Origin: a virus
Taxonomy: Duplodnaviria > Caudoviricetes
Length of the DNA: 64,000 bases
Direction: 5' to 3' (one strand)
Virus record (IMG/VR): IMGVR_UViG_2880152234_000004
Coordinates: 64,001-128,000 of that record
The notes below the pieces were generated by a model. The model ran no database searches. It saw only the letters and a list, made by a program, of their open reading frames with translations, and was not told the origin of the DNA. Position 1 is the first letter of the stretch; every line of letters starts with the position of its first letter. Position numbers and translations under genes: made by a program. Below, piece by piece: positions 8,007-56,270 of this stretch.

Positions 8007-8258
8007 TTAGTGTGACTTGTTTCTTAGTTTAAAGAATACAAAATAGATGATCCATAACAGTATGACAATGATGCATGTGACTACAAATATTGTATTAATA
8101 AGTGTTTGTGCTTCGCTGCTGAAGTAATCCTTAATGAGTTGAAACATTAAGAATAAGCCAATGAATGTGATATGAGTAAACCATAATGAAAATCGTTTCA
8201 TGTTTGCAATGTGCTTGATCATGTTATAATATGAGTAGGAACTAAAGGAGAAGTTCAT
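8007..8258 (-). CDS. yoyJ: YoyJ small membrane protein (SR6-regulated)
   Basis: Two hydrophobic segments; directly downstream of yonT; true start may be an internal ATG. Confidence 0.75.
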   Translation of the reverse strand: MNFSFSSYSYYNMIKHIANMKRFSLWFTHITFIGLFLMFQLIKDYFSSEAQTLINTIFVVTCIIVILLWIIYFVFFKLRNKSH

Positions 8259-8340
8259 TCCCCTTTAGCTTGGTACTCATCTGCGTATACGTTTGCGTTG
8301 TCTCTTCCTACGGAGTCGCTTACGTGTACGCTTTTTCTTT
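8236..8340 (+). ncRNA. SR6-like antisense antitoxin RNA (ends approximate)
   Basis: Extended -10 TGTTATAAT (8222-8230); antisense to yoyJ 5' end and yonT 3' end; ends in a hairpin plus U-run near 8340. Confidence 0.65.
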
Positions 8341-8453
8341 TTGCTTGTCCCATTCATTAAGTTTCTTACCTTCTCAACTATTGTGAGGCAGTTGATAGTA
8401 AGAACTGTTAATGAGATAAGGAAAGCAACTAAGATACCCACCTTCTCAAGCAC
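8277..8453 (-). CDS. yonT: YonT type I toxin
   Basis: GTG start after AGGAGGTG; one TM helix followed by a very basic tail KKKKRTRKRLRRKRQRKRIRR. Confidence 0.9.
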   Translation of the reverse strand: MLEKVGILVAFLISLTVLTINCLTIVEKVRNLMNGTSKKKKRTRKRLRRKRQRKRIRR

Positions 8454-9640: not shown

Positions 9641-12169
9641 TTGAAAGGAAAAAAAGACGGTCTAAATAAGCAAGTACATATTTACAGTATTGATACTTCT
9701 GCTTTTTATAATGATCAAGAAAACAAATTACATAACAAGATTTTAAAATCATATAGGTACAGAGATCATCTCAAAAAACTTGAACATGTTGATAAAAAAC
9801 ATAAGAAGTACATAACGCAAAGGATTATTTCCTTAAAAGAAAAGCTTTATAAAGCCTTTAACGATCATATTCAAATAAGAACACTTAGAACAGATTCTCT
9901 GAAAGATAATAATGTGATTTCATTATTTGATTCAGTCTTAACTCGAACGCTGGGAATCAAAGAAAACTCTCTCTCTGAAGAGATCATGGTTGTCCAAACT
10001 TATCACTTTCAAATTTTAAGGGACATTATTGATAAAGGATTCATACATAACAATGAGAAATACGTTTATTTCACTAGCAGTGCAGGTCAAATACGAACCA
10101 AAAAGTCTTGTTTTATCAAGCAAAGCACCTTAGATGAGTATCAAAATGCTTTAACTTGTGGCCTTAGTGTGGAGCAAATCAATGCTCAAGGTGGGAGTAG
10201 CATAAACAAATGGAATAGCTACATGGCCTTATCGAATAGCGCCAGCAGTCCATGGGAAATTGATATTGATAAAACAATTGTCGTAAATGACTTAGAAACA
10301 AACGTTTCCAGCCTGGTTGATTATATTGATCGTGATACATATGAAATCAATCGTAAAGTTATGGATATTCCTATAGAACATACAGATGGTTGCGGAATGA
10401 TGCTTCCCAGTTTGAGCCAGAAAAGCTTTATGGTCAGATTACCTTGGGTTAAGGGTCTACTTGTTCCATTTGACTTTAGAAAGTTTGCTGAAAAACACAG
10501 TTCATTTATAGTTAAGGACGTCTACGGTAAAGATTGGGACATTATTAAAGATGATATCCAAATAATTTTTACGAAAAGCCAGTTTAAGATGTGGAAGTAC
10601 TATGATTCATGGGATGACTATCGCTCTAAATTTAAAAAGCATGGATGTCTAGGCGCTAAGTTAAATGAAGAAGATCCATCTGTTGAGGGAAAACTGACTT
10701 ACCAAATGCTACAAACACTCACTGATATCACAGATGAGGAATTGAAACAAATCAGCTCAAAGACTGTTAGTGAGATTACTCAATTAGGCACTGATAAAGA
10801 AACCATGATGAAAGTTTTGGGGGCTACCGAGAAAAATAAACATAAAACAAGCCTTCAAGAAGCTCTACTATCATATCCAGAGCTGCTAAATGATGATCAC
10901 ACCAAAGAAATCATTAAGAATAAGAAGAAGAGTATGATTAAGGACGCCAAATCAGGAAAATTACTTGTCAGTGATGCTGGGTATACATATTTATGTCCAG
11001 ATCTATATGCTTTTTGTGAAAGACTGTTTCTTGGAATTGAGAATCCAAAAGGACTTCTCACCGGCAGCAATGTCTATTGTTCTTTATATGATGAAGGGCA
11101 TATTGATATCCTTCGCTCCCCTCACCTATACAGAGAACATGGCGTTAGATGGAACAAAAAAGATGAGGAATATGAAAAGTGGTTTATTACCCGAGGTGTT
11201 TATACCAGCATTCATGATCCGATATCGAAACTGCTGCAGTTTGATAATGACGGGGATAAGGCTTTAATTATTTCTGATGAGCTAATCGTCAATATTGCCA
11301 AGCGTAATATGGAGAACATCGTTCCTTTGTATTATGAAATGTCTGTAGCCCAGAAACAAGAGATTAATAGCAGAAACATCTATGAAGCACTAACTCTTGC
11401 TTATGGAATCAATATCGGGGAGTACAGTAACAACATCACTAAGATATGGAACAGTGACAATATAAACATGGACGTGATCAAATGGTTATGCATGGAGAAT
11501 AACTTTACTATCGATTTTGCAAAAACCTTATTCATGCCCACCCGCCCTGATCTTGTTGATGAGAAAATCAAAGATTACATAAAAAATAAAGTGCCCCACT
11601 TCTTCATCAATGCAAAGGATAAAGAAGAACATAGCGTAGAGTTGATTAATGAAAGTACAGTAAATAAGTTAGACTCAATTATCCCTTCCGACCGAATTAA
11701 TTTCGCAACTGTTGCAGGAAAGTTCGATTATCGTTTCCTGCTTAAGAACAAGGAGATTAAATTGGACGAGGCAATTATTAGTGAATACAAACGATTAGAC
11801 CAGCACAAGAAATGGCTTATGAATGATGAAGACATTAAGCCTGGGCAAAAACATTATGTCTATAAGATCATTAAAGACAGATTGTTGAAAATCCATAATG
11901 ATGAGCAATATGTTACTGATGTTTTAGTTAAGTATCTATACAAGAAAAAGAGTAAGTTTAAGACAACTTTGTGGGAGTGTTTTGGAGAAAAGATTTTGCT
12001 TAACTTAGAATACAATTTTAAAAAGTTTAATCAGTGCGGAGGATGCGGAAAGTTATTTAAAGCTGTAACAAATAGACACAAAAAGTGTCAAAATTGCTCT
12101 AAAATTGAGAGAAGGAATTATCAAAAAAATTTGATGCGTAAAAAAAGAAAAGAAGTTGTTAGCATTTAG
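9641..12169 (+). CDS. yonO: YonO single-subunit (two-barrel) DNA-dependent RNA polymerase for late genes
   Basis: Catalytic QFDNDGD (DxDGD), LRSPH and TDGCG motifs; C-terminal CxxC..CxxC ribbon. Confidence 0.93.
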
Positions 12170-12419
12170 AAAGCGCCTTGAGCCTTACTCCCCCAAGGGG
12201 TACAGCGATTTTACCGGAAAAAGTTTAACAAAAAAAGTGCCTTGAACCCTTGATATAACTGGGCTGAAAGCCCCTTTTGAGATAATCGCCATAAGGGAGA
12301 AAGAAAGCTAATTTCCACATAAAAGGGTGAGTAAGTCTCCCACTTTTCAAAATGTACAAACATTACCGTAATTATACTTTACCACAAAAATAAACAAAAT
12401 CACTAGGAGGAATTAAAAC

Positions 12420-12695
12420 ATGAACAAAACAGAATTTGTTGGAGCAGTTGCAGAAAAATTAGGTGTTACTAATAAAGAAGCTAATCCTAAAGTAGAAGCA
12501 GTATTTAATGTCATCGTTGAAACACTAGCAAAAGGTGAATCAATCAAGATTCCAGGAGTTGGAACATTTGAAGTTCGTGAACGTGCAGCTCGTAAAGGGA
12601 GAAATCCCCAGACAGGCGAGGAAATTGATATTCCAGCTACAAAAGCACCTGCATTTAAGGCTGCTAAGGCTCTCAAGGACGCAGTGAAAGCTTAA
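12420..12695 (+). CDS. yonN: HU-family DNA-binding protein YonN
   Basis: GVGTFEVRERAARKGRNPQTGEEIDIPA HU signature. Confidence 0.95.
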   Translation: MNKTEFVGAVAEKLGVTNKEANPKVEAVFNVIVETLAKGESIKIPGVGTFEVRERAARKGRNPQTGEEIDIPATKAPAFKAAKALKDAVKA

Positions 12696-12746
12696 CAATC
12701 TATAGTGAAGGATTAGATTAGTATCCCTCCCCTCTCTTCACCTATA

Positions 12747-12827
12747 AATGCGGTGGCGGAATAGGTAGACGCAGACAAGCCGGAGGGCCGTAAACTTATG
12801 TGAGGTGCAAATCCTCTCCCGCATTCA
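12747..12827 (+). ncRNA. tRNA-like RNA without a canonical anticodon loop
   Basis: Acceptor AATGCGG/CCGCATT, D-arm GCG-GAATAGGTAGA-CGC, T-arm GAGG-TGCAAAT-CCTC; central region irregular. Confidence 0.6.
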
Positions 12828-13604
12828 TCTCCAGGTTAATTAATTAGAGTTCTTTTATTATTGATGGCATGGGGGTGTACTGATATGTGGGATATCAGTT
12901 CTCTGCTAATATTCATTAGTTTGTGGACTTGGAGTGTCAGGGTTTCGGATAAATGGCTATTATCGGGCTAAAAATGCCGGTAAGACTTAACGCATTAGTA
13001 TAAATTGCGACTGATTCCCATCAGGGTCTTATTATGGGTGGCATATAACCTGATTATTAATTGCGGTGTAATGCTTCGGCTTACACTTAGGTAAGGCAGA
13101 TGCGTCTTCCTTCCCTTTAAATAATGCCCTTGTAAGCTTTGAAGCTAATTATGCGGTCACATAAAAACTTTTTCCGGTTAGCGAGTCTTCTATACTCGTA
13201 AAATAAGGGGAATAGTGTTTGAGCGATTGATCACCGCTCCTATTTCACAGAAAAGGATTATTTTCGGTCTTGCCTTTTCAATTTTCTAAGCAATACATTC
13301 GCTATGTCTCCTTAAATGTTCTGAATGGAGATTTACCTTTCCCATGCACATACCTCCTTACACGGGTCAGAGAAAACTGTGCAAAATAAATGGCGAGCGT
13401 TTGAGACGCTTTGTTTCTCAATAAGGCGTGTAACCTAACAAGAGAGACTGAAAATGCCATTGAGAAGGATTATAATGGGTCTTTCCTTCCGTATAATTGT
13501 TTTCAAATTTCCCTGTCAATCCGAAGGCTTGCGTTCCTACGTGAGCTACTGACGTAGGTGAGATGGGTAAGAAAATAACTAGAACAATAGTATTTAAAAG
13601 TCAT

Positions 13605-13781
13605 TTACTCTTTTTTTGTAGCTTTTACTTTATCATAACCAAACATATAGCCAAAAGCTATCAATGCTGCCCCACCAAAACGAAGATATTGATGATATTC
13701 AAAATCTTTAAAAACAGTAACCGCTCCAACTATCAACAAAACACCTATTATAATACAGGTATTCAAAACTTTGTCTATCAA
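13605..13781 (-). CDS. Small two-TM membrane protein (58 aa)
   Basis: Hand-translated: RBS AGGGGTG, TTG start, MIDKVLNTCIIIGVLLIVGAVTVFKDFEYHQYLRFGGAALIAFGYMFGYDKVKATKKE. Confidence 0.65.
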   Translation of the reverse strand: MIDKVLNTCIIIGVLLIVGAVTVFKDFEYHQYLRFGGAALIAFGYMFGYDKVKATKKE

Positions 13782-14048
13782 AAAAACACCCCTTTTTCAA
13801 ATTCATCTACACTTCATTATACACATGGATTATTTTACCACACAGAGCACTTCTTGATAACTGGAATAGGTCTGTAATACATATGTACGCAAGTTATCAA
13901 TAATCTCCTTCGGGCGTTTCCCCAACGCCTATCCGACTTATCTTTCATCTCCTTTATATCCCCTTCTCGGACGTTACCGATGCTTCGGATCATCGGGCTT
14001 CCGAAGGAGCTTATTGTACGTAAATAGAAAACTACTGGAGGAAATTAA

Positions 14049-14240
14049 ATGGCAAGCAAAAAAGTACATCAAATTAATGTTAAAGGCTTTTTCGATATGG
14101 ACGTAATGGAAGTTACTGAACAAACTAAAGAAGCTGAATACACATATGACTTCAAAGAAATTCTCTCAGAGTTTAATGGAAAGAATGTTTCAATTACTGT
14201 AAAAGAAGAAAATGAACTTCCTGTTAAAGACGTTGAGTAA
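14049..14240 (+). CDS. yonK: YonK-family protein
   Basis: 63 aa, RBS GGAGG; first gene of the late operon by synteny. Confidence 0.85.
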   Translation: MASKKVHQINVKGFFDMDVMEVTEQTKEAEYTYDFKEILSEFNGKNVSITVKEENELPVKDVE

Positions 14241-14252
14241 GGAGATGACTGA

Positions 14253-15470
14253 ATGATCGATCCTATTCAAACTAAGCGTCACTCAGATGAAAACCTTAAA
14301 GAATGGAAAATAAGAATCTGCTCTAATAAAGACATTTATAATCTAAACTGGGAAGAAATCAAAGAGTTAATAAACAAAGAAACCGGCGAATCTAAAGGTG
14401 AATCAGCTTATAGAAAATGGTTCAACAACTTCATTGAGGGGGTTGAATACCAAAGAGAAAAGTCAGATGAATCAAATAATTCTCTCCTTGAATTGGAACT
14501 GAAAAAGGTTGAAATCATGGAAGAGAGAAAAAAGCTTCAAGCTGTAAAGCATGAAATACATAAAAACACACGTGTCAAAGGCCGAACAGAGCTGCTATAT
14601 GAAAATGTAACTGAAGCAATTGAGAAAGTAGGCACTCTCCCTCCCCCTTCCTTCTATCCATTAAATAAGAGCGAAAGAAAAAGAGCTGCTGTTCTAGGGT
14701 TTGGAGACGAACACTTCGGAAAGCAATTTAAAAGCAACAACAATGAATACAACGAACAGATTTATTTGCAGCGTATGAATCAGATCCTTTCTGAAACTGT
14801 TGAGTACATTCAAAAAGAAAATTTAGATGAGTTGGTCGTGTTAAATGGTGCTGATAGTGTTGAAGGTATGGCATTGCGCGTATCGCAATTAACTGCCCTT
14901 CAGTACGGGTTTATTGACCAAGTGATAAAATACTCTAGGTACAAAGCTGAATGGCTTTTAGAACTTTCTAAGCACGTCAAAATTAAGTACATACATATCC
15001 CTTCTGCAAATCATACTGAACTAAGATTACATAATACAAATCGCTCGGAAATGCCTAAAGAAGATGTAGAACGTATTATCGTTACTTATATTCATGACGT
15101 ACTCAAAGACAATGAGCGAATTGAAGTTCCTTTATACGACGAAGGAATTGTGGATTTTAAATTACTTGAATTTGAAATTGTTGCTTGTCACGGACACCAG
15201 ATTAAAAACAAAAAGAATGCTATTCGTGACATTTCACAGATGAAACGAAAATTTTACGATTACATGTACATCTCCCACTTCCACCACGGAAACATGCTCA
15301 CTGTAGGTGAAGCAGCCACTCATAATATCCAAGTTATACAACTCCCTTCTATAATGGGATCCGATGAATACAGTGACAGGTTAATGACAGGTGCCAAAGC
15401 TGGAGCAAACCTATCAATTTATGAGTCCGGTAAAGGTCGTACTATTCAGTATGATTACATATTGAATTAA
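14253..15470 (+). CDS. yonJ: YonJ metallophosphoesterase-fold protein
   Basis: GDEH, GADSVEG, ANH, CHGH and SHFHH metal-binding motifs. Confidence 0.85.
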   Translation: MIDPIQTKRHSDENLKEWKIRICSNKDIYNLNWEEIKELINKETGESKGESAYRKWFNNFIEGVEYQREKSDESNNSLLELELKKVEIMEERKKLQAVKHEIHKNTRVKGRTELLYENVTEAIEKVGTLPPPSFYPLNKSERKRAAVLGFGDEHFGKQFKSNNNEYNEQIYLQRMNQILSETVEYIQKENLDELVVLNGADSVEGMALRVSQLTALQYGFIDQVIKYSRYKAEWLLELSKHVKIKYIHIPSANHTELRLHNTNRSEMPKEDVERIIVTYIHDVLKDNERIEVPLYDEGIVDFKLLEFEIVACHGHQIKNKKNAIRDISQMKRKFYDYMYISHFHHGNMLTVGEAATHNIQVIQLPSIMGSDEYSDRLMTGAKAGANLSIYESGKGRTIQYDYILN

Positions 15471-55834: not shown

Positions 55835-56064
55835 TTCCTAAATCCTCCTTGGTACAAGTTTACATGTTAAATATCGTCATTTGAAAGGAATTGTTTAATA
55901 TTTGAAATAAAAAAGAACCTGCATTTTGCAAGTTCATTCATATTGTCAATTTATTGTGAGTTTTTAACGACAAGGACATTTATGTATAGTATAATATTTC
56001 CTGTACATTAAGATTGCTCACTCAAGGGAGTCTTGCTCATCCCCTAATGAAAGGGGGTGATGCT

Positions 56065-56148
56065 ATGTCAACATTCCAGGCATTAATGTTAATGCTTGCA
56101 TTCGGGTCGTTTATAATCGCCCTGTTGACGTATATAAATAAAAAATAG
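56065..56148 (+). CDS. Type I toxin, BsrE/BsrH family (27 aa)
   Basis: Hand-translated MSTFQALMLMLAFGSFIIALLTYINKK; RBS AAAGGGGGTG with upstream complementary CATCCCC. Confidence 0.88.
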   Translation: MSTFQALMLMLAFGSFIIALLTYINKK

Positions 56149-56270
56149 ACCTCCCTTGAGCCTCAGAACCTAAAGGGATAGGTCTACCAAGAAACCACAT
56201 CGAGCAAGCCCTTTGATGGGCAACTTTTTGTACAGAGCCGGGGTGTTGGTAGCACCCTGGTCTTTTTATT
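56138..56270 (-). ncRNA. Convergent antisense antitoxin RNA (SR4/SR5/as-BsrH type; ends approximate)
   Basis: Minus-strand terminator TAGACC..CCCTT..AAGGGAGGTCTA-TTTTT over the toxin stop; toxin terminator GCCGGGGTG..CACCCTGGTC-TTTTT at 56237-56268. Confidence 0.7.

Follow-up and report, generated by a model that had tools for sequence, protein, structure and literature searches.

What occupies the long gap between yonN and yonK in SPbeta-like phages, a gap in which SPBc2 has no annotated CDS? The DNA analysed here, a stretch of 64,000 nucleotides referred to below as the window, is an SPbeta-like prophage of a Bacillus host. In it the gap measures 1353 nt (1320-1858 nt in ten named relatives) and holds, at the start of the late genes, a tract at 12830-13560 that is conserved across SPbeta-like phages. 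An initial annotation of this sequence had described a hairpin-dense tract without sizeable ORFs, encoding either one large RNA or several small late RNAs, possibly transcribed by YonO. The plain features that it listed were all recovered: the longest ORF is of 52 aa, with none of 60 aa or more; the GC content is raised, at 39.8% against 35.0% for the window; and the six stems that it named are present, at 12879/12892, 13066/13081, 13182/13194, 13221/13235, 13396/13406 and 13536/13552.

The tract is non-coding, since 3-base periodicity is absent among 19 aligned relatives (78/76/72 variable columns over the codon positions; core alignment A1), the gap runs in the same alignment are mostly of one nucleotide (136 runs), and the longest ORF differs in strand and frame from one of these 19 sequences to another. 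Folding energy, by comparison, is of little help. The whole tract gives z = -2.19 on the + strand, where 1 of 20 shuffles folds as well, and z = -1.41 on the - strand, and single modules lie between -0.5 and -1.3 on either strand (200 shuffles each). The stems are thus real, but a density of hairpins beyond chance is not borne out by energies of z -0.5 to -2.19 on the + strand. Single-sequence folding energy is unremarkable and uninformative here; the support for structure is comparative, and the significance of what is a real observation lies in covariation and not in hairpin density.

A search of Rfam, which the initial annotation had proposed as a check, gave one match in the tract, DUF3800-VIII (RF03075) at 13507-13572 on the + strand, with 52.5 bits against a gathering score of 40.2. 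No other family, including GOLLD, ROOL, tRNA, skipping-rope and abiF, matches 12100-14100 at E<=1, and neither GOLLD nor ROOL reaches its gathering score anywhere in the window. The tRNA-like element said to lie upstream of the tract was not recovered either, by Rfam at E<=1 or by ARAGORN, which finds 0 tRNA genes in the window and none in locus L012. Part of the block in question (12740-12825), namely 25-26 nt at 12748-12773, is shared by six or more other genomes with 96-100% identity. In phage Goe14 the slot after the HU gene holds a skipping-rope-like element of 31.3 bits, below the gathering score of 36.7. A part in packaging, as packaging RNA or pac site, was rejected: pac is placed between yonR and yonP, and position is the only tie of the tract to packaging.

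Several neighbouring features lie outside the tract. The gap between yonO and yonN is non-coding and structured-looking at 12170-12300, with the same sequence kept in SPbetaL2 (L039); contigs from the RNA library of run X24 reach a depth of 409 there, joining the stretch in rearranged ways. Downstream, the insertion of about 300 nt that carries a 58-aa ORF is missing from SPBc2; the ORF is annotated as hypothetical in four relatives and no Pfam family was found for it. It could encode a small membrane toxin, akin to the other type I systems of this phage. Two RNAs known from the type I toxin-antitoxin systems of SPbeta, SR6 antitoxin RNA and BsrG RNA, were placed by Rfam at 8239-8342 and 56004-56260. 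The coordinates of all features are collected in Table 1.

Table 1. Genes, blocks and modules around the yonN-yonK gap (window positions, except in the last row).
Feature	Position	Strand	Description
yonO	9641-12169	+	
yonN	12420-12695	+	HU-like
Block B	12798-12949		
Promoter hairpin	12879-12899	+	ACTGATAT-loop-ATATCAGT; 1-2 nt upstream of the core; upstream half of the candidate YonO promoter
Conserved core	12901-12918	+	CTCTGC-TAATATTCATT; predicted start-site equivalent at ~12908
Block C1	12950-13120		
M1	12950-13055	+	Helix 12973-12986/13026-13045 enclosing hairpin 13011-13024 and a swapped inner hairpin
M2	13056-13120	+	Hairpin a 13066-13086 (CUUCGG loop), hairpin b 13089-13116, A/U-rich tail
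M3	13118-13170	+	Small hairpin element with flanks AUGCCCUU and GCGG
Block C2	13121-13296		
C2b	13171-13296	+	Hairpins CGAGT/ACTCG and GAGCG/CGCTC within a longer stem; end hairpin AAAAGG/CCUUUU
Block C3	13297-13489		
C3 module	13297-13495	+	Helices 13346-13350/13378-13382, 13389-13394/13456-13461, 13396-13400/13406-13410 and 13464-13469/13484-13489
DUF3800-VIII RNA	13507-13572	+	RF03075, 52.5 bits
Block D	13509-13567		
58-aa ORF	13605-13781	-	Hydrophobic; inside the ~300-nt insertion, outside the RNA array
yonK-proximal leader end	13885-14048	+	98% identical to SPBc2, against ~82% for the core
yonK	14049-14240	+	
yonJ	14253-15470	+	
Composite motif copies in L002	2282-2306 and 2439-2463 (of L002)		

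Modular build and covariation of the tract

Of 50,697 phage records searched by blastn, 54 match the tract. SPbeta-like phages do so in two to three pieces at 80-88% identity, and single pieces are matched elsewhere: 13056-13111 in Goe3-like phages, 13194-13284 in phi18-2, 13351-13456 in SIOphi-like Herelleviridae and 13513-13567 in Brevibacillus phages. A block map was drawn from 40, then 29 further loci. Relatives carry additional sequence, ~170-200 nt of it between blocks B and C1 and 315-385 nt between C3 and D, and some lack whole blocks (12704-13061 in L039 and L048, 12762-13120 in L046, 13121-13296 in L050), with direct repeats at the block junctions. Blocks C1, C2 and C3 each close with a similar hairpin and A/U-rich tail, all blocks are always on the late-gene strand, and some loop positions are 98-100% invariant. 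Modules are gained, lost and swapped between relatives and recur singly in unrelated phages, a pattern that fits cassettes rather than one folded unit.

Other insertions and junctions were noted in the same comparison. A shared module, GAGGGTATTCGGTAGGGTAA..., is followed by a C2b-like element in phi18-2 (L031, ~600-670) and precedes a C3-like element on a bacterial contig (L024, ~1640-1700, - strand), a further sign of cassette shuffling. A 415-aa ORF is inserted after C3 on the opposite strand in SPR (L040, 2124-3371, -), where no PADLOC family was found for it, and also in one viral contig (L092, 7562-8809).

That the tract consists of modular structured RNAs is in our view very likely, and the evidence is the way in which pairing is kept as sequence changes. 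For C1, aligned over 24 sequences down to ~70% identity (A2), 32 pairs are predicted by RNAalifold, and compensatory changes occur in 14. Drawn as M1 plus M2 with one added hairpin, C1 has 36 pairs, with 95.4% of cells paired against 39-55% when the pairing is slid; 16 pairs are changed on both sides, against 2-5 when slid, and 0 of 500 shuffles score as high. M1, seen in SPbeta-like prophages only, contributes both-side changes in 8 of the 18 pairs of its helices 1-3. M2 alone, over 37 distinct sequences and 19 pairs, is 94.0% paired against 41-60% slid, with 9 double changes against 2-4. The apex GAUGCGUC of its hairpin b is invariant, and downstream of that hairpin UUUUAAUUUU is found in the copies linked to Abi_2 genes (see below) and UUUAAAUAAU in the window.

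C3 was aligned over 10 sequences that include SIOphi-like phages and a bacterial copy (A4), and 22 pairs were drawn by hand; 90.5% of cells are paired against 34-55% slid, and 10 double changes stand against 0-4, values that are somewhat flattering because the structure was drawn from the same sequences. Its first helix occurs in four different versions, each fully complementary, and its loop ACCUCCUUACACGGGUC is near-invariant. Within the loop at 13346-13382, ACCUCCUUA is likewise near-invariant from SPbeta-like to SIOphi-like phages; it appears to resemble the anti-Shine-Dalgarno end of 16S rRNA. For C2 the support is moderate and the covariation weak, only 3 of 31 predicted pairs being double-changed and many showing G-U switches; the 3' half of C2b recurs in phi18-2. 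G-U pairs are located on the + strand and so favour an RNA transcribed in the same direction as the late genes.

A candidate YonO promoter at the head of the tract

A late start site of YonO in SPbeta has been published, at position 2225998; the paper mentions an 'unannotated non-coding RNA' in the interval from this site to yonK and leaves the YonO promoter open (Forrest 2017), and searches for later work on YonO brought up no more about either. Over the stretch compared, genome G041 does not differ from SPBc2, and its yonN and yonK bracket coordinate 2225998. If G041 is numbered like the reference of Forrest 2017, which this mapping assumes, the start falls at 2445 of locus L002, which is the initial A in a TAAT..TCATT core.

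This core is part of a composite motif in the order of a 5-9 bp hairpin, 1-2 nt, a 6-nt spacer block (GTCGGA or CTCnnC) and TAATrnTCATTT, which was found in 39 unique contexts in 36 sources. A hairpin stands at the same place before the TAAT core in 34 of these contexts, with six different stem sequences; the five copies of ATAGAA type fold weakly. Most phages have two tandem copies, as in L002. The window has a single one, at a junction that looks like a deletion between repeated sequences, and this is the only composite copy on the + strand of the 64 kb. The frequency of the pattern as a whole does not exceed chance, with 2 matches over both strands and at least 2 in 33 of 100 shuffles. It counts against the promoter reading that the motif is absent from the available sequence of SPbetaL2 (L039), L048, L046, L062 and L063, and in the first two of these M1 is missing as well.

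Judged by this motif, transcription most likely starts near 12908. Since the start-site equivalent falls there, the first stem (12879-12899), which had been counted among the stems of the RNA, does exist but would belong to the promoter-like motif, ahead of where the RNA probably starts, and the body of the RNA would begin after it. Furthermore, because the first ~80 nt hold the motif that matches the YonO start in SPbeta, the late operon probably has the remainder of the tract as its 5' leader. We consider it fairly likely that the tract is a YonO leader, YonO being the presumed polymerase in this phage. The suggestion of several small late RNAs, possibly made by YonO, thereby gains support: under the coordinate assumption, the published SPbeta start maps onto the motif that also stands at 12901-12918.

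The window's own version of the tract occurs in no run of the RNA libraries (0.12-0.13 of the sampled words in each of 24 rows). The contigs that these libraries do give are relatives at 80-95% likeness, and transcription, strand, ends and processing are not readable from them; a shift in depth from 8.4 to 22.7 near 12950 in a contig of run X1 is only a hint.

Genes that adjoin the modules elsewhere

A covariance model of C1 (R1) matches all SPbeta-like loci and also SIOphi (63 bits) and Goe3 (55 bits), with matches in 6 of 150 other Bacillales genomes and in 3 of 150 genomes of a class-wide sample. The part common to the matches outside SPbeta-like phages is only the 3' 65 nt, that is, M2, whose exact degenerate pattern is present in 31 viral contigs (11 examined) and 13 metagenome contigs. 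M2 is an RNA family missing from Rfam, newly described here, as is the link that follows.

In 14 of 24 examined loci outside SPbeta-like phages, M2 adjoins, on the same strand, a gene for an AbiD-like HEPN protein of the Abi_2 family (PF07751): in 4/10 species genomes, 1/2 other viral contigs and 9/12 metagenome contigs, counts that overstate independence, many of the loci being interrelated. PADLOC calls AbiD for both of the two M2-neighbour ORFs scanned. In the nine metagenome loci, whose proteins are mutually only 52-98% identical, 52-60 nt separate the end of the gene from M2, and M2 lies ~45-90 nt downstream of the gene in four genome loci. It is thus downstream of Abi_2 in 13 of the 14 linked loci; the exception is L112, where M2, followed by a terminator, precedes the gene by 138 nt. 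All 13 Abi-linked loci listed (12 distinct flanks; L072 is unlisted) have a sigma-A-like promoter (TTTACG, 17 nt, TAtcAT) ahead of M2, and SIOphi-like phages have a TTGACG version of it. The ten loci without an Abi_2 neighbour are L071, L074, L075, L076, L080, L081, L104, L116, L118 and L124; L118 has 206 nt upstream only, and the upstream flank of L116 is that of the Goe3 locus (L029). In Goe3, M2 lies inside a tRNA island that also has a skipping-rope RNA three bases from tRNA-Arg. An Abi_2 gene was found in none of five phages checked (Goe3, SIOphi, SPBc2, Goe14 and phi18-2), and the host genome has neither an Abi_2 nor a DUF3800 gene.

Two further modules also have neighbours of this kind. 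M3 follows a PemK/MazF-like ORF in L026, and it follows the sole other PemK-like homologue in 91 family genomes too, a protein 46% identical and from a different genus, at which the M3 stem is changed but still complementary. The link of M3 to PemK, new here, holds at 2/2 homologues. In both loci examined for DUF3800-VIII (L007 and L008), a copy with the same 57 nt comes right after a DUF3800 gene; for a DUF3800 gene (PF12686) near the phage copy, no match was found in the host genome, all but 8000 bases of which were covered. The M2 plus AbiD-like locus of L112 (5539-7128) and the DUF3800 plus DUF3800-VIII locus of L007 (1885-2361) both have YolD-like genes as neighbours and are close to a prophage end that carries a serine recombinase.

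For M1, C2b and C3, no partner gene came to light. The ORFs beside the C3-like copy in L024 have no PADLOC or Pfam matches, and an occurrence of C3 outside phages was rejected as a signal, its 17-nt core being found at one mismatch in 1 of 400 other Bacillales genomes, less often than a reversed control pattern (7).

Proposed orphan partner RNAs and competing explanations

The tract, then, is non-coding, conserved, covarying and modular, and its modules are linked to genes elsewhere. We propose that it is the promoter-proximal part of a long late-operon 5' leader of SPbeta type and a mosaic, on the + strand, of five or more small structured RNA modules that evolve independently, not one large RNA. 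YonO would read from the hairpin-plus-TAAT..TCATT motif, starting at ~12908, through the modules to yonK. At least three of the modules would be orphan copies of RNAs that elsewhere adjoin genes for nuclease-type toxins or defence proteins, namely M2 (AbiD-like HEPN), M3 (PemK/MazF-like) and DUF3800-VIII (DUF3800). Released by processing into small RNAs, or acting as decoys, they might bind and neutralise host nucleases late in infection. The decoy proposal is made because the modules copy RNAs beside nuclease genes and because AbiD/F has been described as a protein plus a short RNA, similar to type III toxin-antitoxin systems (reviews; Saunier preprint). DUF3800 has, in addition, been described as an RNase H-fold nuclease in a defence context and skipping-rope as a tRNA mimic (preprints).

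The chances that the tract is a mosaic array of orphan toxin-partner RNAs, made late by YonO and perhaps mimicking antitoxins, appear to us evenly balanced. Antitoxin mimicry as its function is more tentative, an idea to which we give somewhat less than an even chance. Further still, and rather unlikely in our estimate, the array could be a multivalent, cassette-like string, the first late product of YonO from a hairpin-type promoter, by which SPbeta-like phages disarm several abortive-infection or toxin systems at once (AbiD/F-type HEPN, MazF-like and DUF3800 RNase H-like nucleases), with M2 as a new class of AbiD partner.

Weak points of this proposal are the missing partners of M1, C2b and C3, the 10 of 24 M2 loci that have no adjacent Abi_2 gene, and the side on which M2 lies. 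Known AbiD/F partner RNAs are upstream of the gene and match abiF, whereas M2 is mostly downstream of Abi_2 and has no match to RF03085 at gathering score in the Abi_2-linked loci L015 and L073, nor at E<=10 in L112. Because of this position (13/14) and the missing abiF match, M2 could instead be part of a 3' UTR, serve as a terminator or do something else. In other respects it is like the AbiF/AbiD ncRNAs (RF03085; RCd22; AbiFr) in being short, with two hairpins, and in having a promoter and a terminator of its own next to an Abi_2/HEPN gene; L112 even shows the order of RCd22, with the RNA upstream of the gene and a terminator after it. It differs from ToxI-like type III antitoxins in being single-copy, without tandem direct repeats.

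Alternatively, the hairpins may serve the late operon itself as a cis-acting leader. They could insulate the late genes from read-through of the host polymerase out of yonN, while a hairpin-insensitive YonO passes, or they could stabilise the 5' end or control translation of yonK. The place of the tract, between the mapped YonO start and yonK, speaks for this, as do the similar hairpins and A/U-rich tails at the ends of C1, C2 and C3, and M2 and C3 are both upstream of portal genes in SIOphi-like phages. YonO is also described as pausing little, and as mostly without conserved domains such as the flap that mediates hairpin-dependent pausing and termination in multi-subunit polymerases (Forrest 2017). 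However, a strong terminator-like hairpin, read by eye, splits the SIOphi tract from the portal operon. Modules also occur far from late operons, as in the tRNA island and near AbiD-like, PemK-like and DUF3800 genes with promoters of their own; whole modules are lost in relatives; a terminator scan finds a single site in the tract (13395-13411); and the invariant loops and a three-way junction exceed what a terminator needs. A cis-acting role is therefore unlikely in our judgement, though the main rival.

Less probable still is that the mosaic has its meaning at the level of DNA, as a hotspot of recombination and cargo insertion whose modules are leftover flanks of defence or toxin cassettes, functionless in the phage. 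Such a hotspot would account for the extreme mosaicism, the direct repeats at block junctions and the genes inserted in relatives and here (the 415-aa ORF in SPR, the 58-aa ORF in the window). Yet compensatory changes keep the pairing within the phage lineage, in prophages ranging from the B. subtilis type to the B. pumilus type, and this, with the fixed strand and the invariant loops, points to selection at the RNA level.

A single large RNA with a GOLLD/ROOL-like structure, as the initial annotation had contemplated, was rejected and is very improbable: ~660 nt of contiguous conserved non-coding sequence beside the tRNA-like piece and the z of the whole tract would favour it, but not even a match at E<=1 to these models was obtained, RNAalifold on 19 sequences gives few long-range pairs (covariation term of only -0.96), relatives that have lost whole blocks look functional, and elsewhere modules occur by themselves. 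A series of small ORFs, for which short CDSs annotated in some records (phi3T_55-57, for example) might be cited, is scarcely credible given the absent codon periodicity, the frame-breaking indels and the ORFs that shift strand and frame.

Compared with known systems, the proposed array of orphan partner RNAs is closest in idea to pseudo-ToxI of phage PhiTE, described as an RNA mimic of a type III antitoxin (Blower 2012, PMC3475682): there as, by our proposal, here, a phage lacks the toxin gene but has a non-coding version of the RNA that partners an abortive-infection RNase of the host. The array would differ in stringing together several unrelated RNA classes, none of them a tandem-repeat antitoxin, in that its AbiD-linked M2 is mostly downstream and not upstream of the gene, and in that neutralisation is a proposal here. 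Its members resemble the DUF3800-I to -XI, skipping-rope and drum motifs, described as small, ornate, prophage-common RNAs tied to particular neighbour proteins and often ending in terminators (Weinberg 2017, PMC5737381); unlike those, they are orphans, in tandem in a late-operon leader and beside families outside Rfam. Tandem small structured RNAs on one strand are also seen in phage tRNA islands such as that of Goe3, whereas the window has no tRNA gene and the modules do not fit tRNA models. With GOLLD and ROOL the tract shares being prophage-borne, non-coding and several hundred nucleotides long, but not a model match or a single conserved architecture, and its modules are lost and gained.

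New here are the orphan-array reading and the candidate for the YonO promoter, in which a hairpin whose covarying stems come in six versions is joined to a conserved TAAT..TCATT core. If true, the reading would explain the 'empty' gap of 1.3-1.7 kb in every SPbeta-like genome and the non-coding RNA mentioned in 2017. M2, with its 37 distinct members in phages and bacteria of several Bacilli families, is tightly linked to AbiD-like defence genes, and M1, M3 and C3 are further candidate new RNA families. The orphan-array reading would also suggest a role for orphan DUF3800 and skipping-rope motifs, as partner RNAs of nucleases that phages have copied. Single cases of RNA-based anti-defence are known; an array of several classes would be new.
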